The notes beneath the pieces are model-generated. The model made no database searches, had not been told where the DNA came from, and worked only from the letters and a program-made list of their open reading frames with translations. Shown here one piece after another: positions 33,765-57,300 of a stretch of 64,000 nucleotides of DNA. How positions within the stretch are numbered: position 1 is the first letter of the stretch; each line of letters starts with the position of its first letter. Location of the stretch: positions 15,181 to 79,180 of the forward strand of contig CAZAXH010000004.1 in NCBI GenBank assembly GCA_964489065.1, read 5' to 3'. Both the position numbers and the translations under genes were made by a program. The stretch comes from an uncultured Planctomycetales bacterium. GTDB taxonomy: Bacteria; Omnitrophota; Gorgyraeia; Zapsychrales; JANLHA01.

Positions 33765-35015
33765 TTAAGGCTCCTGCTCCCCGCAGGGACCGGGAGTTTC
33801 CCCCTGGAATATCCTGTCACAAGCCAGCTTAAACCGGGTCCACAGTTCGTCAGCCTGTTCGGGAGGAACAGCCCCGATCATTTTCCATTTCTTTTGAATT
33901 TCTTTGACCTCTTCCCTCACCCTGACAAGATCCCGCAAAGAATACAAACTTTCCACTTCCTGGCAAAGCTGTTCTTTTTCCCTCAAATGTGCCAGCCGTT
34001 CCTCGTCACGTGCTTTAAAATACGCGTGCCGGCGTTCAAAAAACCGATCATGCGCGGCCTTAAAACGCATCCAAACCTGATCGCTATCCTGCTTGGGAAC
34101 CGGACCGATGTTCTTCCATTCCTCCTGCAGTTGTTTTAACTCTTCGCCGGCCGCTTTCCAATCTTCAGAGGCAGACAAGACTTCTGAACGTTCGCACAAA
34201 ACTTCCTTTCTCTTCAGATTCTCCAGCCTTTGCTGTTCTCGTTCCGCATAATAGGAATCCCTGCGTTCAAAAAACGTATCGCTGGCCGTTTTAAATCTCT
34301 GCCAAACATATTCTGTTTTTTCCCGGGGAACCGGGCCGATCAATTTCCACTCCTCCATTAAATGTTTCAGCGCCTCTCCCGCTTGTTTCCAGTCCGAGGA
34401 TTGGCTTAATTCTTCCGATTTACGGCACAAGTCCAATTTTTTCTGATAATTATCTTCTTTCTGCCGGTCCAATTCCGCAAAAAACAAACGCCTGTTCTCA
34501 AAAAACTGATCACAAACCGCCCGGAAACGATCCCACTGCGCCCGGGATTGATGCTCCGGGACAGGGCCAGTCAGCTTAAACTGGGCCTGCAATTTCTTGA
34601 CCTCTTCCGTCGCCACTTTCCAATCCGAAGGATGCAACAACTCCTCGACCCGGGCACATAACCTCTCCTGTTCTTCTAAATGGACATTCAGCTCAGCATC
34701 CAGGACTTCTTTCATAGCTATCAGCCGGCCCATTAAATCATCAAAATTGCCCAAGGCATCGGATTCGACGATGAAATCAAGCATGCGGTTAATTTTATCC
34801 ACCAAACCAGGCCGGTCATGGCCTTGCTCAAACTGCGCCTGCAGCTCACCCTGATACTGTTCCAACTTTTCAAACCGCAACGCATAATAGGCCAACACCT
34901 CTTCCGGGCTTTTTCCATCCAGCCGCCCGATCTGACGGCCTTTAAAATATTGGCAATCCTTCTGCCACACCTGCCCCTCATGATTCACATAACCCCATTG
35001 TTCCGGAAAAGACAT
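33765..35015 (-). CDS. DUF349 repeat protein
   Basis: Six or more tandem repeats of about 60 aa with a conserved W..(I/T)GPVP......W.RF pattern. Confidence 0.7.
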   Translation of the reverse strand: MSFPEQWGYVNHEGQVWQKDCQYFKGRQIGRLDGKSPEEVLAYYALRFEKLEQYQGELQAQFEQGHDRPGLVDKINRMLDFIVESDALGNFDDLMGRLIAMKEVLDAELNVHLEEQERLCARVEELLHPSDWKVATEEVKKLQAQFKLTGPVPEHQSRAQWDRFRAVCDQFFENRRLFFAELDRQKEDNYQKKLDLCRKSEELSQSSDWKQAGEALKHLMEEWKLIGPVPREKTEYVWQRFKTASDTFFERRDSYYAEREQQRLENLKRKEVLCERSEVLSASEDWKAAGEELKQLQEEWKNIGPVPKQDSDQVWMRFKAAHDRFFERRHAYFKARDEERLAHLREKEQLCQEVESLYSLRDLVRVREEVKEIQKKWKMIGAVPPEQADELWTRFKLACDRIFQGETPGPCGEQEP

Positions 35016-35054
35016 GGCCTCTCTCCGTTATATGTAAATATAAATTTCCGATTC

Positions 35055-35330
35055 TTAAAGACCCTGGCCCTCCGCGTCCAGTGTCCCGCGAGAACTTTTT
35101 ATCAACGCGATTTTAGACGACCGGGACAAAGCTTTGATTTGGGATTCCCGCTTCAAAGCCAGCCCCCGGGAAGGGAATTCCTCCGTATATAATAATTTGC
35201 GCACGCCATAAATCCTTGTATAGCGGGCTCCCCGGCCTTGGTCGTGCTCAGCAAGGCGTCTGGCCAAATTATTGGTGATACCGGTATAAAAAGTCCCTTT
35301 CCTCGTTTCCAAAATGTAAGCATACCACAT
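35055..35330 (-). CDS. GIY-YIG nuclease superfamily protein (UPF0213-like)
   Basis: MWYAYILETRKGTFYTGITNNLARRLAEH (GIY...YTG...R...H). Confidence 0.8.
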   Translation of the reverse strand: MWYAYILETRKGTFYTGITNNLARRLAEHDQGRGARYTRIYGVRKLLYTEEFPSRGLALKRESQIKALSRSSKIALIKSSRGTLDAEGQGL

Positions 35331-35347
35331 ATTATTATTATATCAAA

Positions 35348-35445
35348 TCAAAGGTATGTACCCCAGAGCAAGCTCTGAACCTCAATGAACCGCAGCCACT
35401 TCGACCCGCTGGGCTCACTCGCCTGAAGGATCAATTCGCATTTCC
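35348..35445 (+). repeat. Intergenic repeat element, copy C
   Basis: caaaggtatgtaccccagagcaagctctgaacctcaatgaaccgcagcc...gggctcactcgcctgaaggatcaattcgcattt. Confidence 0.75.
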
Positions 35446-35644
35446 AGTTTGGGGTGAAGACGGGGACAGTATAAAAATATCAACCAGGCATTCTCCCCCC
35501 TATGGTCCCCCTTCTTTCCCCGTATCTGTGGCATACTTGAACCCCAGCCGTGTTGGGGGACAAAGAATTAATAGGGGATTCTCAATCGTCATCATTTTTG
35601 CTAGAATGTTAATAATTATAAACTCTCTATGGCAAAAAAAACTT

Positions 35645-36205
35645 ATGATGAAAAAAGCTTTGGTTATTTTAGCAGACGGCTTTGAAGACATCGAGGCCAT
35701 AACGCCCATAGATCTTCTCATGCGGGCCGGCACCCAAGTCACCGTGGCGGGGTTAACCTCCACTCACGTCAAAGCAGCGAAGTCAGGGCTGACGATCATT
35801 GTGCCCACAAGACTGTCGGAAGCGCAGGACACTTTTGACGCCCTGATTCTTCCGGGCGGAATGCCTGGAGCGGAAAACCTGGCCAACTCGTCAGAAGTTG
35901 TGACGCGCGTCCGTCTGATGAATCAACAAAAAAAAATAATCGCGGCTATATGCGCCGCCCCAGCGCTGGTTTTAACCAAAGCCGGCGTTCTGGAAGGGAA
36001 AAACGCGACCTGTTTCCCGGGCATGGAAAACCTCTTTCCCAAAACGACAACATTCGTGGCCTCCCCCGTAGTCCAGGACGGCAACATCATCACCAGCCGC
36101 GGGGCGGGAACAGCCTTCAGTTTCGGGATAACCATTGTCGGGGCTTTGCTAGGGAAGGGGCCCCGTGAAAAAATTGAACAGACCACGGTCTTTAAGGCTT
36201 CTTAA
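35645..36205 (+). CDS. DJ-1/PfpI (ThiJ) family protein
   Basis: ALVILADGFEDIEAITPIDLL...AAICAAPALVLTKAGVLEGKNATCFPG, with the conserved nucleophile-elbow Cys. Start reassigned to MMKKALVIL. Confidence 0.85.
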   Translation: MMKKALVILADGFEDIEAITPIDLLMRAGTQVTVAGLTSTHVKAAKSGLTIIVPTRLSEAQDTFDALILPGGMPGAENLANSSEVVTRVRLMNQQKKIIAAICAAPALVLTKAGVLEGKNATCFPGMENLFPKTTTFVASPVVQDGNIITSRGAGTAFSFGITIVGALLGKGPREKIEQTTVFKAS

Positions 36206-36422
36206 GGATAATCCCGGGGCGAGACCACTGGTTTTCAAGTTTATTTTTTTGCGCAACGAAATTATATATAATAAACTTTAAAATATGCTAAAATTTTCTA
36301 AACATATCAGCAGCGGGACGGCCAGGAACAAATGCCCCGTCCCGGGAACAGAAAATATCCGCACATAGGATATAAAAAAATCATTTTACGACAGAACCCT
36401 TAAGCACGGACAGGAGGCCCCC

Positions 36423-37577
36423 TTGAGAGCATTCATTATCGCAATTTTTATCGTCTGCATGACACAACCGTTATCGGCTGACACCATCCTTTTAAAAAAC
36501 GGAAAAACCCTGGAAGGACCGATTATCGAAAAGACCAAACGCCACATAAAAATGCAAACCAAAAACGGCGTTATCAAAGTTCCTTTCACCATGATGGAGG
36601 AAGCAACGGCGGAAGAGGTCAAGAAAATCCCGGAAAAAATAATGATAAAAGACGAACCCCCTCTTCTTTATAAAGGGAAAAAGATTACCAAAGAAGATAT
36701 TGATGTGGAGAAAATACTGCAGCCGGTTTTCGCCAAGTTCAAAGACATGTCTTCCTTTCAATGCAACGGGACCGGGGTTTCCAACAGCATTCGGGATAAT
36801 GTCATGGATACAACGCAGACATATATAACCATGAAATTCCAACGGCCCAATTACTTCCTGATTGTCCTAGACAACACCCTCAGCAAAGGGCAAAAAGAAA
36901 TCCTGGCCGCCTGGAATAACGGGGCGACCCCCCTGTCTTACAGCAGTACCGCCAAAACCTACAACTACGCGTCCAACGACACTATGGCCTTGATGGATAT
37001 CGGATATCTTAAAATTCTCCACCAACTGTTTTCCGGATGCGAAGCGGAATGCCCGCTTCTTCAAGATCTGACGTATCTGGGAAACACGGATTTAAACGGA
37101 GAATCCTGCTACCTTTTGTCCCGGACCATGCCAATCGGCTACTATGTTCTTTGGGTATCCAAAAAACGGAATATTGTGATCAGGCTTGATTACACTCTCT
37201 TCGGATATCCGGATGAATTTTACCGGCAGCCAACGACCGACGCCGAACTCGAAACAATCCTGCAGGCCATGGAGATGGAACCCACAGAAGAAAATTTAAA
37301 AAAAGCCAGGCAGGTCATTCTCAATATCCAGCCTCCCCCTGAGGACGAAGAGGACGAGGATGATGCGGCCAAAAAGAAAGAAAAGAAAAAGAAGAAAGCC
37401 CCTCCGCCCCCTCCGCCACCACCGAGAGGGCCTAAATACCAAACAAGCATTTACGCTGAATTAACCCTGGATAATTTTGAATTTGACTGGGAAATTGATC
37501 CGGGAGAATTCCGATTCGGAATCCCAGAGGGGACAAAGTTTGTGCCTGCAGAGGACTTTAAGAAACAATTTGAATAA
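36423..37577 (+). CDS. Secreted protein of an uncharacterised family (paralog 1) with an acidic, Lys-rich and Pro8 low-complexity insert
   Basis: TTG start with an AGGAGG RBS. Signal peptide. Conserved blocks shared with the 39545 gene: LYKGxKIxKEE, MxSFQCNGxG, YITxKFQRPxY, CEGECP(L/F)L, ENCYL, WVS, TARQVI. Confidence 0.6.
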   Translation: MRAFIIAIFIVCMTQPLSADTILLKNGKTLEGPIIEKTKRHIKMQTKNGVIKVPFTMMEEATAEEVKKIPEKIMIKDEPPLLYKGKKITKEDIDVEKILQPVFAKFKDMSSFQCNGTGVSNSIRDNVMDTTQTYITMKFQRPNYFLIVLDNTLSKGQKEILAAWNNGATPLSYSSTAKTYNYASNDTMALMDIGYLKILHQLFSGCEAECPLLQDLTYLGNTDLNGESCYLLSRTMPIGYYVLWVSKKRNIVIRLDYTLFGYPDEFYRQPTTDAELETILQAMEMEPTEENLKKARQVILNIQPPPEDEEDEDDAAKKKEKKKKKAPPPPPPPPRGPKYQTSIYAELTLDNFEFDWEIDPGEFRFGIPEGTKFVPAEDFKKQFE

Positions 37578-37627
37578 ACGACCGGGCGTCCTCTCCGCTT
37601 CTGCCCAAAAATAAGCTCCAATGTTAA

Positions 37628-37653
37628 CCGGGATGATGGTATCGTCATCCCGG
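37628..37653. terminator. Hairpin between convergent genes (CCGGGATGA-N8-TCATCCCGG), nested inside an 11-bp inverted repeat (AAACGACCGGG / CCCGGTCGTTT)
   Basis: Seen in sequence. Weak T-run (tcgtttt) downstream on the + strand. Confidence 0.4.
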
Positions 37654-37683
37654 TCGTTTTAAATAGCCCCCAAAATTCCCGTA

Positions 37684-38406
37684 TCATCTGCGGCGAAGCT
37701 TCGACAGGAAACGCAGAATCTCCATATACAGCCAGATTAAAGTGACCATAAGGCCAAAAGCTCCGTACCATTCCATATATCTGGGAACACCCATGCGGGA
37801 CCCCTGCTCAATAAAATCGAAATCTAGCACCAAATTTAAAGCGGCAATAATAACAACAATAAGGCTGAACCCGATTCCAATCGGGCCGCTGTCGTATATG
37901 AGCGGCATGCGAACCTGAAAGAAACCCAAGACCAAAGTCAAAAGATAATATAACGCAATCCCCCCGGTGGCAGCCACGATCCCCATCCGGAATTGATCCG
38001 TAACCGTTATCATGCCGGATCTATAAACAATTAATAACGCGCATAATGTCGCCCCCGTGAGGCCGACGGCCTGCTTGACAATCCCCGGATACGATTGTTC
38101 AAAAATAACAGAAACGGTCCCCAAGACAACCCCCTCCAAAAGAGCGTATATCGGCGCCGTGACCGGAGACCACTCTTTCTTAAAAACAGTGACCAGGGCG
38201 GTCAAAAATCCCCCCACTAAAGCCGGCAATAAAAAAGGACTGGCTCCCCCGGGGTTGCTCCAAGCCCAAGTCGCTGTCAGCATCACCAGGAAAAGCAGGA
38301 TGAAACTTTTGTTCGTCGTCCCCTGGATCGACATGACATGACCCGAATCATACGACCTGACCTCGCTAAAAGTGTCGTTTGTTAACACAGGATTTCCTGA
38401 ACGCAT
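37684..38406 (-). CDS. 7-TM membrane protein, Bax-inhibitor-1/YccA-like (tentative)
   Basis: About 240 aa. Seven hydrophobic helices. A charged C-terminus (LSKLRRR) as in the BI-1 family. Confidence 0.45.
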   Translation of the reverse strand: MRSGNPVLTNDTFSEVRSYDSGHVMSIQGTTNKSFILLFLVMLTATWAWSNPGGASPFLLPALVGGFLTALVTVFKKEWSPVTAPIYALLEGVVLGTVSVIFEQSYPGIVKQAVGLTGATLCALLIVYRSGMITVTDQFRMGIVAATGGIALYYLLTLVLGFFQVRMPLIYDSGPIGIGFSLIVVIIAALNLVLDFDFIEQGSRMGVPRYMEWYGAFGLMVTLIWLYMEILRFLSKLRRR

Positions 38407-38497
38407 ACCCCCCTCCTTTCATTAAATCACAACAATCTTTTTTGTAACCCCCTTGAACCCTTTCAAAATCCTTTCTCCCGAAACAGGATGACAATTC

Positions 38498-39310
38498 CTA
38501 AGGAGTCTTGGGCTTATAATATTTCATCGCTTCGGGGATCGCCGCCACAATTTTATTGATCCGGGTCTGGTCCGACGGATGGGTGCTTAGAAATTCCGGC
38601 GAAGCCGCCCCCTTCTTCTGCTGCGCCATCCTCTCCCAAAACGCGACGGCCCGGTTGGGGTCATACCCGGCCATGGCCATAAAAATCAGGCCCAAATGGT
38701 CCGCCTCATTTTCGTGAAGTCGGCTATACGGCAAAATAATCCCCAAATTACTCCCCACCCCGAAAGCGGCCATCCAGAGTGCTTTGGTTTTCTCCGGTTT
38801 TGTTTCCAGGGCCGTTGAGAGGGCAAAGCCTCCCAGTTCCGTGAGCAACCCCTGGCTCATGCGCTCATCCCCGTGCTTGGCAATGGCATGCGCGATTTCA
38901 TGCGATAAAACAACCGCCAGCCCGCTTTCATCCTGCGTGATGGGGAAAATCCCTGTATAAACGACGACTTTGCCGCCGGGCATGCACCAGGCGTTGGCCT
39001 CTTCGCTTTCGACCAAATTAAATTCCCAAACATATCCATTTAATCGCGCCGAAAGACCTTGTTCCATCATATAATCCTCCACCGCACGCTGTATCCTCTC
39101 CCCCACATTTTGGACCATCCGGGTTTTCTCTTTGTCTATACTGAGTTTATGATTCTTCAAGAAATCATCATATTGCTGAAGGCTCATGGAAAGCATTGTA
39201 CTGGCCGGGATAATATCCAATTGGGTCCGGCCTGTTATCGGGACGGTCGCGCAAGAAGCCAAAAAACAGACAAAAATATAAACAAAGACCAGCCTGATTT
39301 TAGATAACAT
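38498..39310 (-). CDS. M48-family Zn-metallopeptidase lipoprotein (YcaL/BepA-like)
   Basis: Lipobox FLASC. HEIAHAIAKH (HExxH) plus a downstream Glu. About 270 aa. Confidence 0.8.
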   Translation of the reverse strand: MLSKIRLVFVYIFVCFLASCATVPITGRTQLDIIPASTMLSMSLQQYDDFLKNHKLSIDKEKTRMVQNVGERIQRAVEDYMMEQGLSARLNGYVWEFNLVESEEANAWCMPGGKVVVYTGIFPITQDESGLAVVLSHEIAHAIAKHGDERMSQGLLTELGGFALSTALETKPEKTKALWMAAFGVGSNLGIILPYSRLHENEADHLGLIFMAMAGYDPNRAVAFWERMAQQKKGAASPEFLSTHPSDQTRINKIVAAIPEAMKYYKPKTP

Positions 39311-39544
39311 AAAACACGCTCCTTGATTACGGCGCTAAAAATGCGACGAACGGATATCAGAATCGAAACAGCACCCATTCAGTGATAAAAAATTTTATAT
39401 TTGGGAAATTTATTATAATACGATACGCGGGCGTATTCAACCCTTTCAAGAATGCCTTTCTATGCTGAAAAATAACTTGTTTTGATTTTTAGAATTTTAT
39501 GTTTTATTATTGTTGTATATTCATAATATAAAAGGAGTTCTTCC

Positions 39545-40627
39545 ATGCAAAAACGTTCAGCCATACTTATGCTTATTTTATTATCGGCCAATATGGCATT
39601 TGCCGAATCTGTGGTGCTTAAAAGCGGGATGATCGTCCAAGGGGAGGTCATCGAGAAAACCCAAGAGTATATCAAGGTCGATACCGGAAGCAACGTTCTA
39701 AAAATCCCCTTCAAACGGATGGATGAAGAATTCGCCGCCGCCTACCAGGCCCTTCCGGAAAAAATCGCCGACCCCCAGGATGTCCTTCTGTACAAAGGCC
39801 AAAAGATTTCAAAAGAAGAGGTTCAACCCGAGGCCATTTTAAAAGCCGTGCTGGCCCGTTATAAGGAAATGACGTCGTTCCAATGCAACGGGAGCGGGAT
39901 AACGAGTACCAGTTACGGAGAAGCTCTTGTGAACGGGCAGAAGTACATTACCGTTAAATTTCAGCGCCCTCATTATTATTTGACCATAGATAAAACATCC
40001 CTGCCCAAACGCAAGAAAAAATTCGGAGAAGAAACACGGGCGGCATGGTCCAATGGGGAAGGCCATTATTACTATAAAAGCACCGCCCAAAAATATTTTC
40101 AGCTCCCGACCGACACGATGGCGCGCATGGGCATGGCCTATATAAATATCCTGTATAATTTTTTTACCGTCTGCGAAGGCGAATGCCCCTTCCTTAAAAC
40201 ATTCTCATACTTCGGGAATGCCAGTTTCGGCGGAGAAAACTGCTATCTATTCAAACAGGATGTCAGTTCAGGATCATATATGATTTGGGTCTCCCAAGCG
40301 AGCAACCTGATCGTAAAAATCGATTATGAATTCGAAGGGCAGCCGGATGAATTCTTTGCGCGGGGCATGAATATAGAAGAAATCAACAGCATCTTCCCTC
40401 CTCTAGAGATGGAACTCACGGCCGAAAATCAAAAGACCGCCCGGCAGGTGATCAAAGATATCCATGCTATTCGATGGGGGCAGACAACCAAATCCTATGT
40501 CGAAGTCACGCTTGAAAATATCATCACAAACGAGGAGCTCAAGCCGGAAAGTTTTCAATATCCTTATCCCCAGGACACGGCTTTTGAATCAGAAGAGGAT
40601 TTCAAAAAACGGTTTGAAAAAAAGTAG
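39545..40627 (+). CDS. Secreted protein of an uncharacterised family (paralog 2)
   Basis: Signal peptide. Conserved blocks shared with the 36423 gene (see that entry). AAGGAG RBS. Confidence 0.6.
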   Translation: MQKRSAILMLILLSANMAFAESVVLKSGMIVQGEVIEKTQEYIKVDTGSNVLKIPFKRMDEEFAAAYQALPEKIADPQDVLLYKGQKISKEEVQPEAILKAVLARYKEMTSFQCNGSGITSTSYGEALVNGQKYITVKFQRPHYYLTIDKTSLPKRKKKFGEETRAAWSNGEGHYYYKSTAQKYFQLPTDTMARMGMAYINILYNFFTVCEGECPFLKTFSYFGNASFGGENCYLFKQDVSSGSYMIWVSQASNLIVKIDYEFEGQPDEFFARGMNIEEINSIFPPLEMELTAENQKTARQVIKDIHAIRWGQTTKSYVEVTLENIITNEELKPESFQYPYPQDTAFESEEDFKKRFEKK

Positions 40628-40825
40628 TTGTTGAGAGAGCCCTTATACCCGTCGCCCACCCCGACGGAATATAGACACCGTGAAAACCCGTGTTAAACTA
40701 AAACGCTTTGCCCCTTTCCTGTTACTGGTCCACGGAACGCGCGTTCTGGTTCAAATTTTATATTGATCTCCCCTTCCCATAATCATTTTTTCCGCTACAA
40801 TATTTTCTAGATCATAGGAGATTAT

Positions 40826-41863
40826 ATGCACATTCACACCCCGCGGGCGTCATGCCTTACGCGCCTGATCAGCCTGATTATCGTTGGCGCAGTCTGTTTC
40901 TATATAGGAGCCTATAAAGACCGGATATCCAGCTTTGTGGAACAATATTTCCCGGAAGTAAAAAAAGCGGTGGCAAAGCGGGTCGCCCAAATTCAAAAAA
41001 GTGCCAAGCCCCGGATCATAACCATAACGCCTGCGCCGGACAAGAATCCAGAGCCAGCGCAAGACAACGCCCCGGAACAAAAGCACCCTTCCCCAAGAGA
41101 TATCCGCCTCGCTTCTTTTTATGTCAACTCACCTTCTGATGATACGGTCTCGCCAGGACTTGCCTATACGGCACAAATTGTCAAATACTTTGATGTGGCG
41201 GCTATCCAAGGGATCGAAACAGAAGCCGTCCTCAAAAAAATTGTGGATATTCTAAAAAGCCTCGGATTATCCTACGCCTATCTTTGGGCCGGATCCCCTC
41301 AAAACGGGACCACATGTTTTCAGGCGTTTTTATACCGCCAAGATAAAATTTCAGTCCTGCAAGGAGGGAAAATCTATGAGGCGAACGCCTCCCCGTTTCT
41401 TCAAGAGCCTTATTATGCCAGATTCCAGGCCGGCCGTTTTGACTTCACCCTTATCAGCATTCATGTCTCCCGGGGCGTCCATGAAGAAGACCGCCGCAAG
41501 GAAATTAAAGCCCTCCCCGACCTCTATAATGTCATACAAAAAGAATTCCCCGTTGAGCAGGATATCATCCTGCTCGGACATTTTAACCTTCCTCCTGAAG
41601 ACCCTGCCTGGGATGACCTCAAGCGGTTTCCAACGATGTCCCACCTCATCAAGCCTCCGGACACGACCAACATCGCCGGAACCAGGCTTTACGACAACAT
41701 CTGGTTCCAGAAAAAATACTGTCGGGAATACACCGGCCGCTCCGGGGTAATAAAATTTGACGAAAACATGTTTAAAGATGACGATAAAAAAGCCGGGGAC
41801 GCTGTTTCCGACTACCGCCCGGTGTGGGGAGATTTCCACGTCACGCAGCCGGACGATGACTAA
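40826..41863 (+). CDS. Membrane-anchored endonuclease/exonuclease/phosphatase (EEP, DNase-I-like) family protein
   Basis: N-terminal TM. EEP-like blocks (IRLASFYV, AAIQGIE, LLGHFN, SDYRPVWGDF). Confidence 0.55.
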   Translation: MHIHTPRASCLTRLISLIIVGAVCFYIGAYKDRISSFVEQYFPEVKKAVAKRVAQIQKSAKPRIITITPAPDKNPEPAQDNAPEQKHPSPRDIRLASFYVNSPSDDTVSPGLAYTAQIVKYFDVAAIQGIETEAVLKKIVDILKSLGLSYAYLWAGSPQNGTTCFQAFLYRQDKISVLQGGKIYEANASPFLQEPYYARFQAGRFDFTLISIHVSRGVHEEDRRKEIKALPDLYNVIQKEFPVEQDIILLGHFNLPPEDPAWDDLKRFPTMSHLIKPPDTTNIAGTRLYDNIWFQKKYCREYTGRSGVIKFDENMFKDDDKKAGDAVSDYRPVWGDFHVTQPDDD

Positions 41864-41994
41864 CCCCGTCTAACCGCAGGCGCACCCTTTTTAATCAGCC
41901 TGGTCGACCCAATTCCTGTTTTTTTTATTCGACTTTCTTTTTTCCATATTTCCTTTATAATAATCACATACTATTTTTCAATTCTCTTGCTACC

Positions 41995-43191
41995 ATGAAA
42001 CTATTGCTGTTAACCAATGAATATCCGCCCTATATCTACGGCGGAGCGGGAGTTCATGTCGCCAACCTCAGCCACGAACTGGCAAAATTATGCCATGTTG
42101 AAGTGCGATGTTTCGGCGATCAGGCCAGCACGCAGCCCAAGCTCAAAGTAACCGGCTATCAGAACTCCACCGAGCATTATTCCAGCGAGGACGGGCACAC
42201 AAGGGTTTTCGACGCCCTGCAACGCTGCCTGCACTTCAACACCGACAAAATCGACGCAGACATCGTCCATGCCCACACCTGGTACACCCATTGGGGAGGG
42301 ATCCTGGCGAAGCTTAATTACTCCATCCCACTGGTGATCACGGTTCATTCTCTGGAACCTCTCCGCCCCTGGAAAAGAGAGCAACTGGGCGGAGGCTACG
42401 ATTTCACATCCTGGGTTGAAAAAACCGCTCTTGAAATGGCGGACGCCATTATAGCCGTGTCAGAAGACACCAAAAAAGACATTCTCCGGTTCTCCCGGGC
42501 CCCGGCATCCAGAATCCACGTCATTCCCAACGGCATCAATCCGCTTATTTATAAACCGGTCCGGGCCCCTTCGGTTTTAAAAAGGTTCGGAATCGACCCT
42601 TCCCGGCCTTTTGTCCTTTTCGTCGGCAGGATCACGAGGCAGAAAGGGATCCTGCACCTGGTGAACGCCATCCCTTTCATGAAAAAAAATTTTCAGATCG
42701 TACTCTGCGCCGGGTCTCCCGACACGCCGGAATTTGGGCGGGAGATGGCGGCCCTTGTCAAGCAAGCCCAGGATATCCATCCGGGAGTCATCTGGATAAA
42801 AGACATGATCCGCGAGGAGGAGAAAGTCGCGCTTTATTCCCACGCCGCTGTTTTTTGCTGCCCATCCGTCTACGAACCGTTCGGGATTATCAATCTGGAA
42901 GCCATGGCCTGCTCGACTCCCGTAGTGGCTTCAGCCGTCGGCGGGATTAAGGAAGTTGTGGAAGACAAAAAAACAGGGCTGCTGGTCCCGGTTGCGCTGA
43001 AGAAGAATTCTCAAATTGGACCGGCCCATCCGCAAAAATTCTCACGACAACTGGCCCTGAACATCAATCAGCTTATGGATGACGAAAAGTTAAGAGCCCG
43101 GTACGGCCAAGCCGGACGCCGTCGGGTCCTCAAATATTTCACCTGGGAAAAAGTCGCCAGGAAAACCCTGGCTCTCTATAAAAAGCTGTAA
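41995..43191 (+). CDS. GT4-family glycosyltransferase (retaining, GT-B)
   Basis: N-terminal LLLTNEYPPYIYGGAGVHV. C-terminal EPFGIINLEAMACSTPVVASAVGGIKEVV (the GT4 E-x7-E region). Confidence 0.8.
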   Translation: MKLLLLTNEYPPYIYGGAGVHVANLSHELAKLCHVEVRCFGDQASTQPKLKVTGYQNSTEHYSSEDGHTRVFDALQRCLHFNTDKIDADIVHAHTWYTHWGGILAKLNYSIPLVITVHSLEPLRPWKREQLGGGYDFTSWVEKTALEMADAIIAVSEDTKKDILRFSRAPASRIHVIPNGINPLIYKPVRAPSVLKRFGIDPSRPFVLFVGRITRQKGILHLVNAIPFMKKNFQIVLCAGSPDTPEFGREMAALVKQAQDIHPGVIWIKDMIREEEKVALYSHAAVFCCPSVYEPFGIINLEAMACSTPVVASAVGGIKEVVEDKKTGLLVPVALKKNSQIGPAHPQKFSRQLALNINQLMDDEKLRARYGQAGRRRVLKYFTWEKVARKTLALYKKL

Positions 43192-49701: not shown

Positions 49702-52700
49702 TTATGGATGCCTGGGAACGGTCACCGTGGCTGCGGCGGTCGCACTGTTCCCGGAGACGTCCGTGGCAGAGTAAAGAAGCGTATAAATCCGGCCATTCGA
49801 CGACCCTTGCCGCTCAGCGCGCAAATAAATCTGGCCGTTCGCATCAACCCGAATGTCGGCTGTCGTATCCCCATCCGGCACCCCGGCATCATAATTAGGA
49901 TCATAGGTGTTGATTTGATCGCCTTCGTTCATAGTAATAGACGTTAACCTCACCAGAGGACCGGGATCGCAGGTATCCGCGGCCGTAACGACTGGCGTTA
50001 TCTTGACCATTTTATGATTTGGCGGCCACAAAACAGCGAGGTTCACGCTCACACTGATCTGTGGCGGGGTGGTGTCCCGGACAGTCACCTGCCCTGTTTG
50101 GGAATCGGCTGCGCCCATGGGATCTTCCACCGTCAAAGAAAAAGAATAAACACCCAAAGGAAGCGTGACGGTTTGGGTGACACCGGACAGATTCCCCCAA
50201 GGCCCGGACCAGAGATACGTTAAAGGATCTCCGTCCTCATCCGTAGACGCTGAACCATCCAGTACAACCGCACAGCCCTGCGGCCCGGTGCATTCCACGA
50301 CCCAATCCGAACCGGGCTGCGATTGAGGGGCATGGTTCAAAACCTCGGTCGTCCCGGCAGCCACTGCAATCTGCCGCCCCCGGAATGTCAGGACAACCGT
50401 CCTCGTCCCGTTGTTAATCAATGTTAATGTATCCGGATAAAAAATAATCTTATCCCCGGTTTCCAGCACGGCCGCGGCCACATCCCCGGAAAGCGCGTTC
50501 AATTCCACGTTCACAGGACCGCTTACGATATCCGCGCCGATACTGCCGCAGGTCACGACAACTTCGTCTCCGGGAGATAAAAATATATTCCCCGCCTCCG
50601 AACAGGCCGTCACTTCCGCCTGTACAGCGCCGCCGCTTGCATCGACCTTGATTCTGACCCCTGCTAAAGGATCAAAATCATCAACGATGGTCAGAACCTG
50701 ATCCCCCCGGCTCAGGATCTCGCCGTACGTGGCAGGATCGCTATGGTCATTAAAACTATTGGAATACCCGGTCACGTCACCGTCAACGGCGTCGGACAGC
50801 CCGTCGCCGTCATAATCAATCCGGTCAAGACTTCCGGTCACGGCATTGATTAACGAAACATTGGCGACATGATGCAGGGCCGTGTCATACTTGGACAGTT
50901 TCCGTTCCAGGTCAGCCTGGCTGTCCTCGTCGAAATTGGGCAGAGTCTCATCATAGAGAAAATGATTATATAAGCCCCAATTGTTCGGGTAACTGTGTAC
51001 TTTGTAGGACCACAACGACCAGCTCCAGCCTTCGGCATTGAAACGGCTCAAATAATACTCCCAAGCGTCCTTGATTCCGAACGCGTTAAATTCACCGACT
51101 AAAACAGGGACGTCATAATCTTCCTGGTAAACCTGTGAATCCGACACCTTCTGGTCAACAAACGCCTTATGATAGTCTATAACGTCAGTAAATGTCAGAT
51201 TAGGAATAAGTTCAGAATATTCTTCTGGGTTATACGCAGGGCAGGTCTCACCCAAGACAGGAAGCAGAAGTTCCCCGGTTGCCTCATTTCTATTTTCCCA
51301 ACAATAATAATGAAACTGGTACATCACGTTTTCCCAACTCATATCTTCCGGCTTGGGCAAAGAATCCCAATCCCAGGCGCCTTCCATGACGATGAGATGA
51401 TCCTCATCACCCACGGTATCGCGGATTTCCTGATAGATATCATCATAAAGGGCGTGCAGCAAAGCGAGACCGCCCACATAATCTTCAAATCCGGTCGGCT
51501 CATTTAAAAGATCATAGCCAAGCACTGCCGGATTATCCTTATAATGATCAGCGATCTTATTCCACAGTTCTACCGTCCGGTCCCGGTAAGCGCTCACCGC
51601 CGGATTAAATAACTGATGGAAATATCCGGGTTCCGGCGGTTCCACCGATTCCCGCCCGGTATGAAACTCCCGGCTCTGGCTTCCCGGAGCGCCGTGCAGA
51701 TCCAGAAGCACATAAATCCCGCGGTCCGCGCAGGCGTTCACGATTTCGTCAATCTTACTGAAATCAAAATTACCGCCGCAGGCCCAATTACCGCTTTCAT
51801 CCAGGTCGCAGATATTCCGGTAATAGAGCGGCAGTCGGACGTAATTGAACCCCATCCGCAGAATATTATCAAAGTCGCTTTCCTGAATATATGCGTCCTG
51901 ATAAACATTCAAAATATTTTGGGCCTCGGCACCTAAATATTCCCGAATGGTCCAGTCGTCAAAATACTTGCCTCCCTCCGGCTCATCCAGATGTTTTTCA
52001 AACTCCGGGCCCTTGCCCAACATCCAGGATTCAAGGAGCAGGTAATTGCCCAAGTTTACCCCTTTGAGTTGCACCACATCCCCGGCGCCATTCTGTTCCC
52101 GGAGATGAAGCCCCGCCGCCCGCACAAAGCCTTGCGGGTCATACAACAACGCCGGGCTCCACGCGCCGCTGTCAACCTCACCCACCGCGCGCACGCGGTA
52201 CCATTTACCGATGTCGGAACCCGACAAAGTTAACGTGGTCTGCGGCCCGCTGTAAATCTGCGTCCAGCCGCCGTCACGGCTGGCCCCTTCTTCCACCACA
52301 TAGGAAACCGCCAGCGGCTGGGCCGTCCATTCTACATACCCTTCCTGCAAGCGGGCATATTTAATCAGCGCCGGTTTAGCGAAATACTGAACCGCCTCGC
52401 TCCAATCAGACTCCACCAAGACAACCCCGTCGATTTCATTGGGGATGCCCCAGCGTACCCGCAGCCAGGAACTCTCCAGTTCCTGAAGCGCGACGCTCGT
52501 TTCCGTGCCGGAATAAATCGTTGTCCACGGCCCCTCTGACCCCGCAGCGCTCTGCTGCAGCGTGTAATGCGCACCGTCTAGATATTTATTCCAGGAAGCC
52601 ACCCCTTCCGGAAGCGCGGCCTGATTGATCGTCACCTCCGGCAACGCCGTGGCCCGGATGTCATCAAAGTAATACGTCCCCGGCCAAAAAATCTGAAGCT

Positions 52701-55590
52701 TAACTTCATATAAATCCTGTAAATTAAAGATCTTCCCCTCAGAAAGGCTCTTCTCTTGTATGGCGCTGAAAGGAATGTCCAGACGGGTCCATTGCCCATA
52801 TTCAGCACTTTTTTCCGTCCAAATTGATAAAGGAGAATTTCTGTAATCCCCGTTATCCAAAAGCTGCACGTTAACATTATTGCTCATCCCATTCTCGGCC
52901 AACTGATACACCCAAAATGTCAGTTTGTCAAACTGCGGCAGGACAAGATGTGCCGGGTTTAGGTTGACATGACGGTAATCATCCCCATTATCAGGTCTAT
53001 AACAGTAGTCGCCAGAAGCATCACAAGCACGTTCCTGAGATATCAACCACACCCCCGCCCATTCACCGGATTTACCGGGATTAGTGACGAGTTTCCAAGA
53101 AGAGGTGCCTTCATAAACTGGTTCTCCCGAACCAGAATATCCCGCAGTGCCAAACCAGGCACCACCCGGATATCCCCACGGCAACGGGCCATCAAGCACA
53201 TTCTGCTCAAAAGCCTGATAAGGGCGATCACCCAAAACAACCCGCATATCATCAAAATAATACGTTCCGGCGTGATAGTTGACGAAATTTATTTTCACGA
53301 CATGATTCAAGTTAAAATCATCCGGCAGTTGTGAGAATAAAACCGTCAACTCTGACCATTGGCCGATTTCAACTTTTTTAGTGGTCCAAACTTCAAAACC
53401 CGGGTGACTTATCCCATCATACAAACTGTCATCAAAAAACCGCACCGCAACGTTATTCGGGCCCGTCGCCGCTAAAGGATAAATCCAAAAACTCAATCGG
53501 TCATTATGCTCTGGGTCAAAATCTATATAGCCTGCCGGGCTCTGGGGATACACGGTTATCCCTCCCCAAGTGGAACCTACTTGCTCACAAGAAGAATTTC
53601 CAGAGCGGACAATGTTTGTAGACACGCCAGCGGTTGCGCCATTAATCCCCTGACAATACATGGCTGGAGTGCCATTGCCCGCCTCAAAATCCTGGTACAC
53701 GCGTCCCCGGGAAACCCCGTTGTACAAGGCGAGAACCTCCTCGGAGGAAATCACCCGGTTATAAATATAAACCTCATCCACAAACCCCTTCCAGTGCCGG
53801 TTCGCTTCCGTGGAATACCCGTTGCCGACAGCCACATGGTTCAAATCCAGGGTTATCGGCCGGTAAGAACCGGCGGTGCCGAGGTTGGGATGCACTTGAA
53901 CATCCGCGGCCGGATGGAAGCTTGTGAAAACCAGTTGCCCGTCCAAATACCCGTAATCGCGGGCTCCATCCCAGGCGTAAACCACATGGTACCAGCGGTT
54001 AGCCTGAAGAGAATCCGTGTAAGTTTCTTCATACACGCCCTCCGGGGCCGGGCTCACCGTGCTCAACCCCAAAGCGCCCATGGTGAACTTCCCGTCAACA
54101 CTTTCTTCAAAACGGATATTATCATCCCAACTGGCGTAATCCGTGGAGAAAGGGTTGCGCCAGTTTTCCACCGTGTCCGCTTTCATCCAGAAAGAAATCG
54201 TGCCGGCCGGTTGATACCCCAGGTCATCATTCACCAGGATAACGTCATTGCTCCCGTCAAAATGATACGCCCCCCCGAAACGGCCTTCACTAGTATAAGC
54301 CGCGCCGTTGAGAACCGCGGCATTATGCCCGTTGCCGCTTTCATCCAGTACAATACTGCCGTTATCATGGGAGAACGTGTACTTCAAAAGCAAACCTTCC
54401 CCTAAAGAAGGAAACGGCGGCTCGTAATCCAAATCAAGCACAGTTAGTCCCACGGGTATCCCGCCCACAGCGGCATCGATTTGTGACGCCGGGGCCAGCG
54501 TGCCATCACCATTTCCCAAATAAACAGAAACTTTTTGATCTTCCAGGTTCCCGAAAACAACATCAATCAACCCATCGCCATTAAAATCCGCCGTTGCCAT
54601 CCCGCTAGGTGTATAGACCAGATTTTCGATTTGAGAATTCAAATGAGAAACAAATTCTTGATTACCAGCATCCCACAGAAAAACCGACAAAAACCATTGT
54701 CCGGACAGTCTGGTGAATGTCACTAAGTCCGTGTAAGTATCATTATTAAAATCCCCGATACGAACTATGCCTGACCCGCCCAAATCCGTGTTAAGGCTCA
54801 ATTCCTGGCGGGTAAAAGTGTTATCGCCGTTGTTCCAAAACACCGTTACCGCCGGGTTCAAAGCGCAGGCCAGGACAAGGTCATCATCGCCGTCATGATC
54901 AAAATCGCTCGTTTGGATATTTTGCGGACGTATTTCAGTGGCTAACTTCTGATCTGATAAAAAGCCGCCGTTACCATTACCATAGAGGATAGTAATCTCC
55001 GATGAGGTCCAATTGCACACCGCGCCATCAAGGTTCCCGTCCTTGTTATAATCCCCCACGGTAACATTATTGGCCCAGCCATCGACAGCCCAGGTGGCGG
55101 AAAGAGAAAAATTCCCATTACCATCCCCCGCAAGGATCTGCACCATTCCTCCGGGATTCCAGTTTGGCACCAGAATATCCAGATGGCCGTCTTTATTAAA
55201 ATCCCCCATGGCCACACCATTGGCAACTTCATACCCCACATCATAAATGGTGCGCGGCTCAAACTCGCCATTGCCCTTCCCTTTAAGAAATCCTAACGTA
55301 TGCCCTCCCCTTCCATTAACGGCCACCAGATCCGGGATATCATCTTCATTAAAATCAGCGGCAGCGACATAATTAGGATAACTGCCCAACACCACATCAG
55401 GAATAATCCTAGTGAACGTGTTATCCTCATTGTTCACTAATACTGAACCGGTTTCAATATTTTCATTGGCCGTGATGATGTCCGCGTAAGGGCCGGCCGC
55501 GTAAGCGGGAACTCCTAACGCAAACACAGCCGCTGAAAGCACGGCCGCTACGATTGTTTTCCAGTGCTGGGGGGGCATGTGTTGGGGCAT
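49702..55590 (-). CDS. Giant secreted multidomain protein (1962 aa): FG-GAP/VCBS β-propeller repeats, LamG/ConA-like lectin domain, two jelly-roll CBM-like modules, a GH5 catalytic domain, and C-terminal Ig/cadherin-like domains
   Basis: Signal peptide. Repeated DFN(K/E/N)DGxxD FG-GAP motifs. The GH5 NEP acid/base (DLLNEPTG) and downstream nucleophile region. C-terminal β-sandwich repeats. Confidence 0.85.
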   Translation of the reverse strand: MPQHMPPQHWKTIVAAVLSAAVFALGVPAYAAGPYADIITANENIETGSVLVNNEDNTFTRIIPDVVLGSYPNYVAAADFNEDDIPDLVAVNGRGGHTLGFLKGKGNGEFEPRTIYDVGYEVANGVAMGDFNKDGHLDILVPNWNPGGMVQILAGDGNGNFSLSATWAVDGWANNVTVGDYNKDGNLDGAVCNWTSSEITILYGNGNGGFLSDQKLATEIRPQNIQTSDFDHDGDDDLVLACALNPAVTVFWNNGDNTFTRQELSLNTDLGGSGIVRIGDFNNDTYTDLVTFTRLSGQWFLSVFLWDAGNQEFVSHLNSQIENLVYTPSGMATADFNGDGLIDVVFGNLEDQKVSVYLGNGDGTLAPASQIDAAVGGIPVGLTVLDLDYEPPFPSLGEGLLLKYTFSHDNGSIVLDESGNGHNAAVLNGAAYTSEGRFGGAYHFDGSNDVILVNDDLGYQPAGTISFWMKADTVENWRNPFSTDYASWDDNIRFEESVDGKFTMGALGLSTVSPAPEGVYEETYTDSLQANRWYHVVYAWDGARDYGYLDGQLVFTSFHPAADVQVHPNLGTAGSYRPITLDLNHVAVGNGYSTEANRHWKGFVDEVYIYNRVISSEEVLALYNGVSRGRVYQDFEAGNGTPAMYCQGINGATAGVSTNIVRSGNSSCEQVGSTWGGITVYPQSPAGYIDFDPEHNDRLSFWIYPLAATGPNNVAVRFFDDSLYDGISHPGFEVWTTKKVEIGQWSELTVLFSQLPDDFNLNHVVKINFVNYHAGTYYFDDMRVVLGDRPYQAFEQNVLDGPLPWGYPGGAWFGTAGYSGSGEPVYEGTSSWKLVTNPGKSGEWAGVWLISQERACDASGDYCYRPDNGDDYRHVNLNPAHLVLPQFDKLTFWVYQLAENGMSNNVNVQLLDNGDYRNSPLSIWTEKSAEYGQWTRLDIPFSAIQEKSLSEGKIFNLQDLYEVKLQIFWPGTYYFDDIRATALPEVTINQAALPEGVASWNKYLDGAHYTLQQSAAGSEGPWTTIYSGTETSVALQELESSWLRVRWGIPNEIDGVVLVESDWSEAVQYFAKPALIKYARLQEGYVEWTAQPLAVSYVVEEGASRDGGWTQIYSGPQTTLTLSGSDIGKWYRVRAVGEVDSGAWSPALLYDPQGFVRAAGLHLREQNGAGDVVQLKGVNLGNYLLLESWMLGKGPEFEKHLDEPEGGKYFDDWTIREYLGAEAQNILNVYQDAYIQESDFDNILRMGFNYVRLPLYYRNICDLDESGNWACGGNFDFSKIDEIVNACADRGIYVLLDLHGAPGSQSREFHTGRESVEPPEPGYFHQLFNPAVSAYRDRTVELWNKIADHYKDNPAVLGYDLLNEPTGFEDYVGGLALLHALYDDIYQEIRDTVGDEDHLIVMEGAWDWDSLPKPEDMSWENVMYQFHYYCWENRNEATGELLLPVLGETCPAYNPEEYSELIPNLTFTDVIDYHKAFVDQKVSDSQVYQEDYDVPVLVGEFNAFGIKDAWEYYLSRFNAEGWSWSLWSYKVHSYPNNWGLYNHFLYDETLPNFDEDSQADLERKLSKYDTALHHVANVSLINAVTGSLDRIDYDGDGLSDAVDGDVTGYSNSFNDHSDPATYGEILSRGDQVLTIVDDFDPLAGVRIKVDASGGAVQAEVTACSEAGNIFLSPGDEVVVTCGSIGADIVSGPVNVELNALSGDVAAAVLETGDKIIFYPDTLTLINNGTRTVVLTFRGRQIAVAAGTTEVLNHAPQSQPGSDWVVECTGPQGCAVVLDGSASTDEDGDPLTYLWSGPWGNLSGVTQTVTLPLGVYSFSLTVEDPMGAADSQTGQVTVRDTTPPQISVSVNLAVLWPPNHKMVKITPVVTAADTCDPGPLVRLTSITMNEGDQINTYDPNYDAGVPDGDTTADIRVDANGQIYLRAERQGSSNGRIYTLLYSATDVSGNSATAAATVTVPRHP

Positions 55591-56535: not shown

Positions 56536-57300
56536 TCAACAACCGCCAGACGGAGAGTCTTCCGGGTCGGGATAAACTAAAAAATAGGCCTTAATTTTTG
56601 AGGACGGAACCGTTAAACACGAAATGTCCCGGGCATCAGCCTCGGTTTTTCTTTTAACTCCCATAAACTGCAAATAGCCGGTCAAATCAAAGGCCAACGC
56701 CCTGATTTCAGGCAGTCCCTCTCCGATAAACAGGATCGCATCCAGTCCCCCCAGGCTTGCGATAAAAGCTCCTATATATTTCAAAATCCGATAACAAAAT
56801 ACGCCCCTGGCAAATTCCGCTTCCGGGTCCCGTCTTTGAAGAACATTACGCAACTTACAGCACCCCCCGGCCAGAGCCTTAAACCCGCTTTGCCGAGACA
56901 ACAACGCCTCTATCCGTTTCCCCGGAACTCCGTCAGCAAGCATCTGAAAAATGATAGAACTGTCAACCGCCCCGCAGCCAGTTTCCGAAAAGAGACCATC
57001 GAGAGAAGAGAACCCGTCGCTGACATCAATGGGCCGGCCATCCTGAATAGCCGCAAGGTTTATAGCCCGGCCGATAAAAATACTTATGATTTTATGAAAT
57101 CTTTGCCTGGCCCCGTTTTTAACCGCCCCGAGGGCCCATTGATGAACCTTTCCCTCCCGGCCGTATTTTTGAACGCCCCGGCGCGATAACTCGTAGGGGA
57201 TAGCGTATATCCTGGCACATTCAGGCAGGCGCTCAAAAAACATATCTTGTCTTTTTGGAATCATACCCCACCCCCCAGAAGCCGCCCGCCTTCCAGGCAA
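56536..57300 (-). pseudogene. Truncated, degenerate acetate-kinase paralog (C-terminal domain only). Catalytic motifs are lost.
   Basis: Homology to the Ack C-terminal half is clear (IDVSDGFSSLDGL vs VDTSMGASPNTGL; GVFCYRILKYIGAFIASLGGLDAILFIGEG vs Ack YxHRxxKYIGAY...DAxVFTGGIGE). However RYGFHGxSH is replaced by KYGREGKVHQ, and there is no N-terminal domain. Confidence 0.55.

Follow-up and report, generated by a model that had tools for sequence, protein, structure and literature searches.

Introduction

LolA, a periplasmic lipoprotein carrier, is a single-domain protein of ∼180–200 residues that is conserved across diderm phyla and works with LolCDE. The RseB/MucB proteins have the LolA fold and gate the proteolysis of anti-sigma factors. 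In Clostridioides difficile, the LolA-like lipoprotein GerS allosterically activates the amidase CwlD (PMC8496864), and remote homology has linked the DUF2092 family to LolA (PMC4520260). Here we describe two paralogous genes, par1 (36423–37577) and par2 (39545–40627), in a 64,000-nt stretch of contig CAZAXH010000004.1 from a Candidatus Omnitrophota bacterium; this whole stretch is the window, and all positions are given in its coordinates unless another locus is named. The two products are new and very divergent members of the known LolA-like superfamily, from a DUF2092-type branch with a helical insert, and not a new kind of protein. On balance we think it probable that par1 and par2 are lineage-specific duplicates encoding exported, two-domain periplasmic LolA-like proteins that bind hydrophobic ligands, as carriers or as sensors.

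The original prediction for this DNA had described two secreted paralogs of an unrecognised family that flank, on the opposite strand, a BI-1-like membrane protein and an M48 lipoprotein protease, and had read the four genes as a possible envelope stress or proteolysis module, with the paralogs as substrates or adaptors of an envelope protease. The description of the arrangement is confirmed by the open reading frames (ORFs), by Pfam and by sequence motifs, and all four ORFs lie where that prediction had put them (Table 1).

A predicted LolA-like fold for the C-terminal domain

With the 10-sequence alignment of the close family, AlphaFold2 (AF2) gave a mean predicted local distance difference test score (pLDDT) of 48; with remote relatives added, the par2 model reached a pLDDT of 84 and a predicted template modelling score (pTM) of 0.72. 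From the N-terminus, this model consists of a signal helix, a four-stranded N-terminal module (N-module, residues 21–55) with a short helix, a disordered linker (75–82) and a helix (95–108). The C-terminal part that follows is a long series of antiparallel strands (11 long strands) with internal helices, a helical insert (AF2 helices 267–273, 277–281, 284–287 and 293–307), and a final strand and helix. The model therefore has the defining feature of the LolA-like fold, an unclosed antiparallel β-barrel with a helical plug or lid. A Foldseek search of the PDB with the par2 model, a check that the original prediction had proposed, returned the LolA proteins of many species as top matches (probability 1.0, E = 2e-9 to 1e-5). 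These include 8v1k (E = 2.2e-9), 2w7q, 4ki3 and 7z6w, with target-normalised template modelling scores of 0.5–0.64, and they are followed by Porphyromonas gingivalis LolA3 and LolB, the DUF1329 protein 4z48, 3bk5 and MucB.

Sequence comparison leads to the same superfamily through intermediates. A profile of the C-terminal 280 residues, scored against all of 1.84 billion representative proteins, found 221 remote relatives at E ≤ 1e-3 and 79 at E ≤ 1e-10, most of them ∼280–300 aa in length and spanning profile positions 15–270. Among 50 remote relatives tested, 28 match DUF2092 (best E = 2.3e-10) and 11 match LolA_like (PF17131), and such relatives bear public names including 'DUF2092 domain-containing protein' and 'outer membrane lipoprotein-sorting protein'. 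Homology of the paralogs to the LolA-like superfamily is thus established transitively, by way of remote relatives that match DUF2092 or LolA_like. Closer to the paralogs, par2 itself aligns to positions 3–166 of the 212-position DUF2092 profile, and the ortholog P0003 carries a precomputed PF09865 match. A direct NCBIfam scan of the paralogs gave sub-threshold matches only, and neither the narrow-family profile nor the wider one found anything significant among PDB sequences; the wider profile reached only E = 0.39, to Pseudomonas aeruginosa LolA. Literature searches on Omnitrophota together with LolA, and on LolA-like proteins together with BlaR1, returned nothing relevant.

Two motifs connect the family to LolA at the residue level. 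R141-P142 of par2, in the sequence KFQRP, is invariant in the family, and the corresponding LKKPNLY of the wider profile aligns with VKRPNLF (Arg43-Pro44) of E.coli LolA, for which we used a sequence identical to 1IWL. At the C-terminus, an F-x-[FY]-x-x-P motif (dFeFkvPeG) aligns with KFTFTPPQG of LolA. Each of these alignments is weak when taken alone, but the two are collinear; when the family profile was aligned by hhalign with the single E.coli LolA sequence, the C-terminal motif alone was recovered, at a probability of 3%. The family also has four conserved cysteines (114, 210, 214 and 233 in par2), which include a C-x3-C pair. In P0007, the par2 ortholog on chromosome OY759724 (locus L002, 10001–11698), a low-complexity insert of 72 aa lies between the cysteines of this pair, and the protein ends in a K/E-rich repetitive tail of ∼130 aa.

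The family is 'unrecognised' in the sense that direct Pfam placement fails; profile search, AF2 model and Foldseek nevertheless identify it as a divergent LolA-like/DUF2092 family. The original prediction had named LolA/LppX-like proteins as a known family whose established, unrelated function would speak against its proposal. The LolA-like kinship was found, but no unrelated function came with it, as DUF2092 has no established function.

Signal peptides and the N-terminal module

Both proteins begin with Sec signal peptides that are cleaved by signal peptidase I, followed by a β module of ∼45 residues, a disordered linker and an unclosed β-barrel of ∼270 residues. We considered par1 as a lipoprotein and rejected this assignment: Cys12 is not part of a lipobox and is replaced by Gly in the L004 ortholog.

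The N-module occupies residues ∼20–65 of both paralogs and starts A[ED][ST][IV][VL]LK[SN]G. More than 40 exported proteins of Omnitrophota and Planctomycetes have it immediately behind their signal peptides, and the C-terminal parts of these proteins are unrelated to one another: TPR repeats, a trypsin-like protease with TPR, TraB/GumN, an S9-type hydrolase, DUF6263, or sequence that is unrecognisable. The N-module is a promiscuous leader domain of exported proteins, one that dozens of them in the two phyla may use for targeting or anchoring. Its profile found no significant match among PDB sequences. The consensus of the module, which belongs to no Pfam family, is AETIVLKSGKTxEGKIxEKTDxYIKxD...TYYxDEIxSIDG (loci L006–L046).

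Paralogy, selection and expression signals

The par1 and par2 proteins align end to end with 37% identity (E = 1e-92), far beyond chance. All seven collinear sequence blocks picked out in the original prediction are present in both proteins, with par1 one residue off the consensus in four of them (KED for KEE, CEAEC for CEGEC, ESCYL for ENCYL and KARQVI for TARQVI). The acidic, Lys-rich insert with its Pro8 tract that had been attributed to par1, EDEEDEDDAAKKKEKKKKKAPPPPPPPPRGPKY, is found exactly at residues 307–339 (nt 37341–37439) and is absent from par2. All par1 orthologs keep a segment of this character, and its position in the par2 model lies where the helical insert gives way to the last long β strand; on these grounds the segment would form a surface loop. 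The spread of lengths in the par1 cluster (372–414 aa) was considered as a polymorphism of the insert and rejected, since it reflects start codons that were called differently.

Orthologs of par1 in the related loci L001, L003 and L004 are 71–96% identical to it, and those of par2 are 56–95% identical. The ratio of nonsynonymous to synonymous substitution rates (dN/dS) is 0.08 for par1 and 0.09–0.16 for par2, as compared with 0.03–0.10 for the BaxI and M48 genes. Both paralogs are under purifying selection and are therefore real genes. Between par1 and par2, synonymous sites are saturated (proportion of synonymous differences, pS, 0.80).

Each paralog forms its own transcription unit, because their promoter blocks are conserved but differ from one another and a strong hairpin ends par1 (Table 1). 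The ribosome-binding sites of both genes are conserved, and par2 has a 234-bp divergent control region in common with the M48 gene, containing conserved blocks. The 5' leader of par1 (36295–36422) is long and contains a GC-rich hairpin (∼36316–36353, GGGACGG...CCGTCCC); the closest relative has it too, but it is not clearly preserved in more distant ones. An Rfam search of positions 35000–42000 at E ≤ 1 gave no match, so no known riboswitch accounts for the leader and its hairpin.

Table 1. Positions of the paralogs, their domains, the intervening genes and the associated signals in the window
Feature	Position	Strand	Basis or remarks
Conserved promoter-like block upstream of par1, GAAATTATATATAATAAACTTTAAAATATGCTAAAAT; a leader of ∼130–150 nt follows	36258..36294	+	Near-invariant in four species (alignment)
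par1, exported two-domain protein, LolA-like paralog 1, 384 aa	36423..37577	+	ORF; TTG start 8 nt past GGAGG
par1 signal peptide, residues 1–19, cut after LSA (LSA|D)	36423..36479	+	Read from sequence, aligned to that of par2
par1 N-terminal β module (ADTILLKNGKTLEGPIIEKTKRHIKMQT...)	36480..36632	+	Lepto_7_Nterm E = 1e-10, below cutoff
par1 LolA-like (DUF2092-related) domain	36705..37574	+	Aligned with the par2 domain; in the profile that finds DUF2092/LolA_like relatives
par1-specific acidic/Lys-rich/Pro-rich low-complexity insert, residues 304–337	37332..37433	+	par1/par2 alignment
Hairpin with 12-bp stem where par1 and BaxI converge, a probable terminator for both directions	37627..37654	.	
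BaxI_1 (Bax inhibitor-1/YccA-like) multi-pass membrane protein, 240 aa	37684..38406	-	PF12811 E = 4e-76
M48 zinc-metalloprotease lipoprotein, 270 aa	38498..39310	-	PF01435 E = 5e-33; lipobox LASC, HEIAH, ENEAD
par2 promoter-like site TTGATT-17-TATTAT, within a block conserved in five genomes	39482..39510	+	
par2, exported two-domain protein, LolA-like paralog 2, 360 aa	39545..40627	+	ORF
par2 signal peptide, residues 1–20, cut after AFA (AFA|E)	39545..39604	+	Read from sequence; model helix 2–16
par2 N-terminal β module, four predicted strands 21–55 and helix 61–68	39605..39754	+	pLDDT 86–92; Lepto_7_Nterm E = 2e-9, sub-threshold
par2 predicted LolA-like half-barrel, residues 95–360: FQRP (R141-P142), Cys 114/210/214/233, C-terminal FQYPYP	39827..40624	+	
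par2 predicted helical insert between barrel strands, residues 267–307	40343..40465	+	Model; also in remote DUF2092-like relatives

Spread of the family and conservation of the locus

The close family amounts to 8 clusters among 5.8 billion proteins, and close relatives form only three 50%-identity clusters among the 1.84 billion representatives. When each GTDB species is represented by one genome, the full-length protein is found in three Candidatus Omnitrophota metagenome-assembled genomes. Only four or five genomes, closely related to one another, contain the full-length family, and all of them have the same 12-gene backbone: C92 – MarR – DUF349 – GIY-YIG – DJ-1 – [par1] – BaxI – M48 – par2 – [...] – endonuclease/exonuclease/phosphatase (EEP) family – GT4. 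Within the window, the neighbours of the paralogs are accordingly DJ-1, BaxI_1, M48, the EEP-family protein and the GT4 glycosyltransferase.

Conservation of the four-gene arrangement, the test to which the original prediction had pointed, is limited. The gene order of the window is kept in L003 (95% identity) and L004 (70%) only. It is broken in L001, where par1 lies five genes away from BaxI and MurJ and Smr genes follow par2. In L002 (chromosome OY759724), par1 is absent from its usual position, and two other genes stand there. The nearest relatives of the paralogs in the outgroups do not adjoin M48 or BaxI. P0017, an Omnitrophota protein that is 26% identical over its full length, is closer than any other relative that has this two-domain architecture, and it has no M48 or BaxI neighbour. 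The same is true of P0010, and two of three further single-domain relatives have no M48/BaxI-type neighbour.

In L001 (1723–8030), the five genes inserted between par1 and BaxI are glycan-related: PEGA, GT2, a GH42-like protein, a PIG-L deacetylase and an acetyltransferase. An acetyltransferase and PIG-L pair also adjoins BaxI in the unrelated Omnitrophota locus L130 (6976–9035), and the pair may be an older BaxI neighbour. In L002, a second EEP-family lipoprotein gene (7036–7896) takes the place of par1.

The pairing of M48 with BaxI_1 was examined in its own right. No M48 gene adjoins BaxI_1 in any of 80 metagenomic BaxI_1 loci (53–65% identity), and none was found near BaxI in two of three other Omnitrophota BaxI loci. 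At L131, another Omnitrophota locus, a likely orthologous M48 gene (54% identity) lies two genes from BaxI; the paralogs are absent, and a DsbA-like gene holds the divergent position that par2 has in the window. We therefore rejected M48–BaxI_1 as a widespread conserved pair, given its absence from all 80 loci and its loose recurrence in a single other Omnitrophota locus. L131 and the outgroup loci indicate that proximity of M48 and BaxI occurs without the paralogs, and that paralog relatives occur without M48 or BaxI. The position of the paralogs around M48 and BaxI_1 is synteny inherited in one narrow clade; a functional connection with the protease is no more than possible.

Functional interpretation

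The view of par1 and par2 as periplasmic binders of hydrophobic ligands builds on an established frame: an export signal, two domains, a LolA-like fold in the model, the R-P and C-terminal motifs, four conserved cysteines, purifying selection and separate transcription units. Given the fold and the activities of LolA, LolB, RseB/MucB and LppX-type proteins, the half-barrel would be a periplasmic carrier or sensor whose hydrophobic ligand would be the acyl chains of a lipid, a glycolipid or a lipoprotein, or some other such molecule. The four cysteines probably form two disulfides, and we would guess that the N-module serves for docking or tethering to a partner in the envelope.

Several observations weigh against this reading. 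In a direct Pfam scan, par1 had no match and par2 matched only DUF2092 (PF09865), at 15.8 bits and E = 0.0096 against a gathering cutoff of 21.2; the LolA model PF03548 matches neither paralog at E ≤ 0.1. The function of DUF2092 is not known experimentally, so hydrophobic-ligand binding is argued from the fold. Moreover, the same domain type is fused to M56 proteases elsewhere, and BaxI, M48 and par2 are unbroken in every genome that has the family; for these two reasons we keep a protease-linked role in play. The contiguity itself carries little weight, because the functionally unrelated block from C92 to DJ-1 is equally unbroken at the same phylogenetic depth.

In such a protease-linked role, par2, and perhaps par1, would be a periplasmic ligand-sensing regulator or adaptor of the adjacent M48 lipoprotein protease, with BaxI_1 as the membrane component of the same envelope quality-control unit. 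We regard this as unlikely. BaxI, M48 and par2 have stayed contiguous in all family genomes despite gene insertions on both flanks, and par2 and M48 share their divergent control region with its conserved blocks; the unbroken C92–MarR–DUF349–GIY-YIG–DJ-1 block makes the first of these points uninformative, and par1 is displaced in L001 and missing from its site in L002. Four of the five outgroup relatives, P0017 among them, have no M48 or M56 neighbour, and at L131 the orthologous M48 near BaxI has a DsbA-like divergent gene and not a LolA-like one.

The remote relatives bear on the same question. We surveyed the best 148 for fusions; 52 of these are at least 400 aa long, and their partners include Peptidase_M56 (6 proteins), thioredoxin/AhpC-like domains (5), extracytoplasmic function (ECF) sigma factors (2) and a Ser/Thr kinase (1). 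The commonest partner, Peptidase_M56, is of the BlaR1 type and gives weak M48 matches too, and in the M56 fusions the LolA-like domain lies just past the last predicted transmembrane (TM) helix, which is the position of the BlaR1 sensor. M56 proteins of Planctomycetes–Verrucomicrobia–Chlamydiae (PVC) bacteria, however, bear many kinds of C-terminal domain, and the M48 protein of the window is a small soluble lipoprotein protease and not a membrane M56 transducer. In the sigma-factor fusion, the LolA-like domain follows a single TM helix, and the gene for the single-domain relative P0030 immediately precedes those for a BlaI-type repressor and an M56 protein of 1316 aa. Fusions are exemplified by the remote relatives P0019, P0021, P0061 and P0029, and the BlaI/M56-adjacent arrangement of a single-domain relative by L133 (5001–10611). 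Given the M56, ECF sigma/anti-sigma and kinase fusions and the context of P0030, the DUF2092-type LolA-like branch is repeatedly used as the extracytoplasmic module of transmembrane signalling proteins, and some DUF2092 proteins may accordingly be sensors. For an adaptor role there is also the structural similarity of the par2 model to MucB, as well as the precedent of GerS (PMC8496864; bioRxiv 10.1101/2025.01.13.632879).

The idea can be taken further. The DUF2092-type LolA-like domain might be a lipid or envelope sensor with a recurrent coupling to zinc proteases of the M48/M56 type, both being in one chain in BlaR1-like transducers and the sensor being a separate protein here; par2 with par1 would then regulate or target the M48 protease and, together with BaxI_1, form a previously undescribed Omnitrophota quality-control unit. 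We consider this wider proposal quite unlikely. If the protease link were true, it would be a new example of LolA-fold proteins that control envelope proteolysis. The modulation of FtsH-type proteolysis to which the original prediction appealed is known only for the YccA family, which is distinct from BaxI_1. Of its envelope proteolysis module, what stands is the flanking arrangement, rightly described; as a conserved unit beyond shared ancestry, the module finds no support.

A very unlikely alternative is that par1 and par2 are the working lipoprotein carriers of this bacterium, equivalents of LolA (perhaps LolB-like) that would ferry, for example, the adjacent M48 lipoprotein to the outer membrane. 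The best structural matches of the model are indeed genuine LolA proteins, including the LolA–lipoprotein complex 7z6w, the R-P and C-terminal motifs of LolA are kept, and Bacteroidota have several LolA paralogs with specialised cargo (PMC11885536). An essential carrier would, however, be expected phylum-wide, whereas this family is limited to four or five genomes; the Pfam LolA model does not match, and the N-module, the helical insert and the low-complexity insert are foreign to LolA. Genes for an ATP-binding cassette (ABC) ATPase and a MacB_PCD/FtsX permease do lie just downstream of the par2 ortholog in L002, but they are on the opposite strand beside a radical-SAM/SPASM gene, a combination typical of peptide-export cassettes, and they are absent from the window and the other loci. 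Lol genes, which a carrier would call for, were not found in the scanned parts of the window, most of its upstream half being outside the scan.

That the ORFs are non-functional, or that their mutual similarity is a functionless recent duplication artefact, has the 'hypothetical protein' annotation of all public copies as its one argument and is virtually excluded by the integrity of both paralogs in several genomes at dN/dS 0.08–0.16, the saturation of synonymous sites between them (pS 0.80), the conserved ribosome-binding sites and promoter blocks, and the confidently predicted protein fold.

Exported, two-domain LolA-like binders of hydrophobic ligands thus remain our preferred description of par1 and par2. 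It proposes a model-based fold and a likely role for two publicly 'hypothetical' proteins of the poorly understood and largely uncultured Omnitrophota, and it illustrates how a sub-threshold DUF2092 match can become a confident assignment.

Other genes of the window

The product of the BaxI_1 gene matches PF12811 over its full length (256 bits, profile positions 1–233 of 233), and its homologs are 60–98% identical across Omnitrophota. The M48 protein scores 115 bits against PF01435 (cutoff 20.3), with HEIAH at residue 137, ENEAD at 200 and the lipobox LASC at 17–20, ending in Cys20. Its scores are below the NCBIfam equivalog cutoffs for BepA (95 bits versus 570) and LoiP (51 bits versus 365), so it is an equivalog of neither.

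Downstream of par2 in every related genome is a gene for an exported protein with a weak EEP signature, of 345 aa in the window (40826–41863). A giant protein of 1961 aa is encoded on the minus strand at 49702–55590 and contains FG-GAP repeats, a lectin-like Laminin_G_3 domain, a GH5 cellulase and PKD domains. A pair of ORFs of 404 and 254 aa at 56.5–58.5 kb was suspected of being LolC/D-like and was rejected as such because it is acetate kinase. A full-length acetate kinase of 403 aa is encoded on the minus strand at 57261–58475, and a phosphotransacetylase gene lies at 58456–59460. A 253-aa ORF (56536–57300, minus strand) overlaps the acetate kinase gene by 40 nt and matches positions 148–378 only of the acetate kinase profile, as a partial second copy.

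Comparison with known systems

For the N-module, the closest described counterpart is the Leptospira 'LA_0442/LA_0875 N-terminal domain' (NCBIfam NF047433, Lepto_7_Nterm), a module without known function, to which the comparison is limited. All 24 N-modules tested match it, at E-values down to 2e-9, and in both cases the module lies directly behind the signal peptide of otherwise unrelated exported proteins. The N-modules score below the curated cutoff of 43 bits, however, and come from organisms of other phyla.

Among regulatory proteins, GerS is unrelated in sequence and is a lipoprotein of a Gram-positive spore former, and no amidase is present here; as a precedent, it nonetheless shows hydrolase regulation by a LolA-fold protein through protein–protein contact and not by lipoprotein carriage (PMC8496864). 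The RseB/MucB proteins have a LolA-like N-domain that is structurally similar to the par2 model (6jau and 6in9, E ∼7e-5 to 9e-5), more weakly than LolA itself. As a concept, control of a protease step by a lipid-sensing periplasmic protein would agree with the genes around the paralogs and with the fusions of remote relatives to M56 and sigma-factor domains. The paralogs differ from RseB/MucB in having neither a MucB_RseB Pfam match nor the RseB-type C-terminal domain, no sigma-E/RseA operon is near them, and the adjacent protease is an M48 lipoprotein instead of DegS or RseP.

In sequence, the nearest family is DUF2092 (PF09865), which Pfam describes as a 'predicted periplasmic protein' and places in the LolA-like clan with LolA, LolB, LolA_like, DUF1329 and MucB_RseB. 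Identity to relatives of this type is only ∼17–28%, par1 and par2 fall below the gathering score, and the paralogs have an extra N-module, three additional conserved cysteines including those of C-x3-C, and the charged, Pro-rich insert of par1. What they have in common with DUF2092 is export, a similar domain size and the motifs K-[KR]-P-N-L-Y, G-E-x-C-Y and W-[IV]-S-K.

In structure, LolA (PF03548; 1IWL, 7Z6W and 8V1K) is the closest. There is no significant sequence match, the LolA-like domain of the paralogs is ∼90 residues longer and has a helical insert, and LolA, widespread as it is, has a single domain, whereas the paralogs are two-domain proteins of 360 and 384 aa from a tiny clade. 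The likeness to LolA is nevertheless the strongest structural match of the par2 model: the predicted fold is the same, both are periplasmic proteins with a signal peptide, and both have, in the same order, an R-P motif where strand 2 ends and an F-x-F-x-x-P-x-G motif at the C-terminus.

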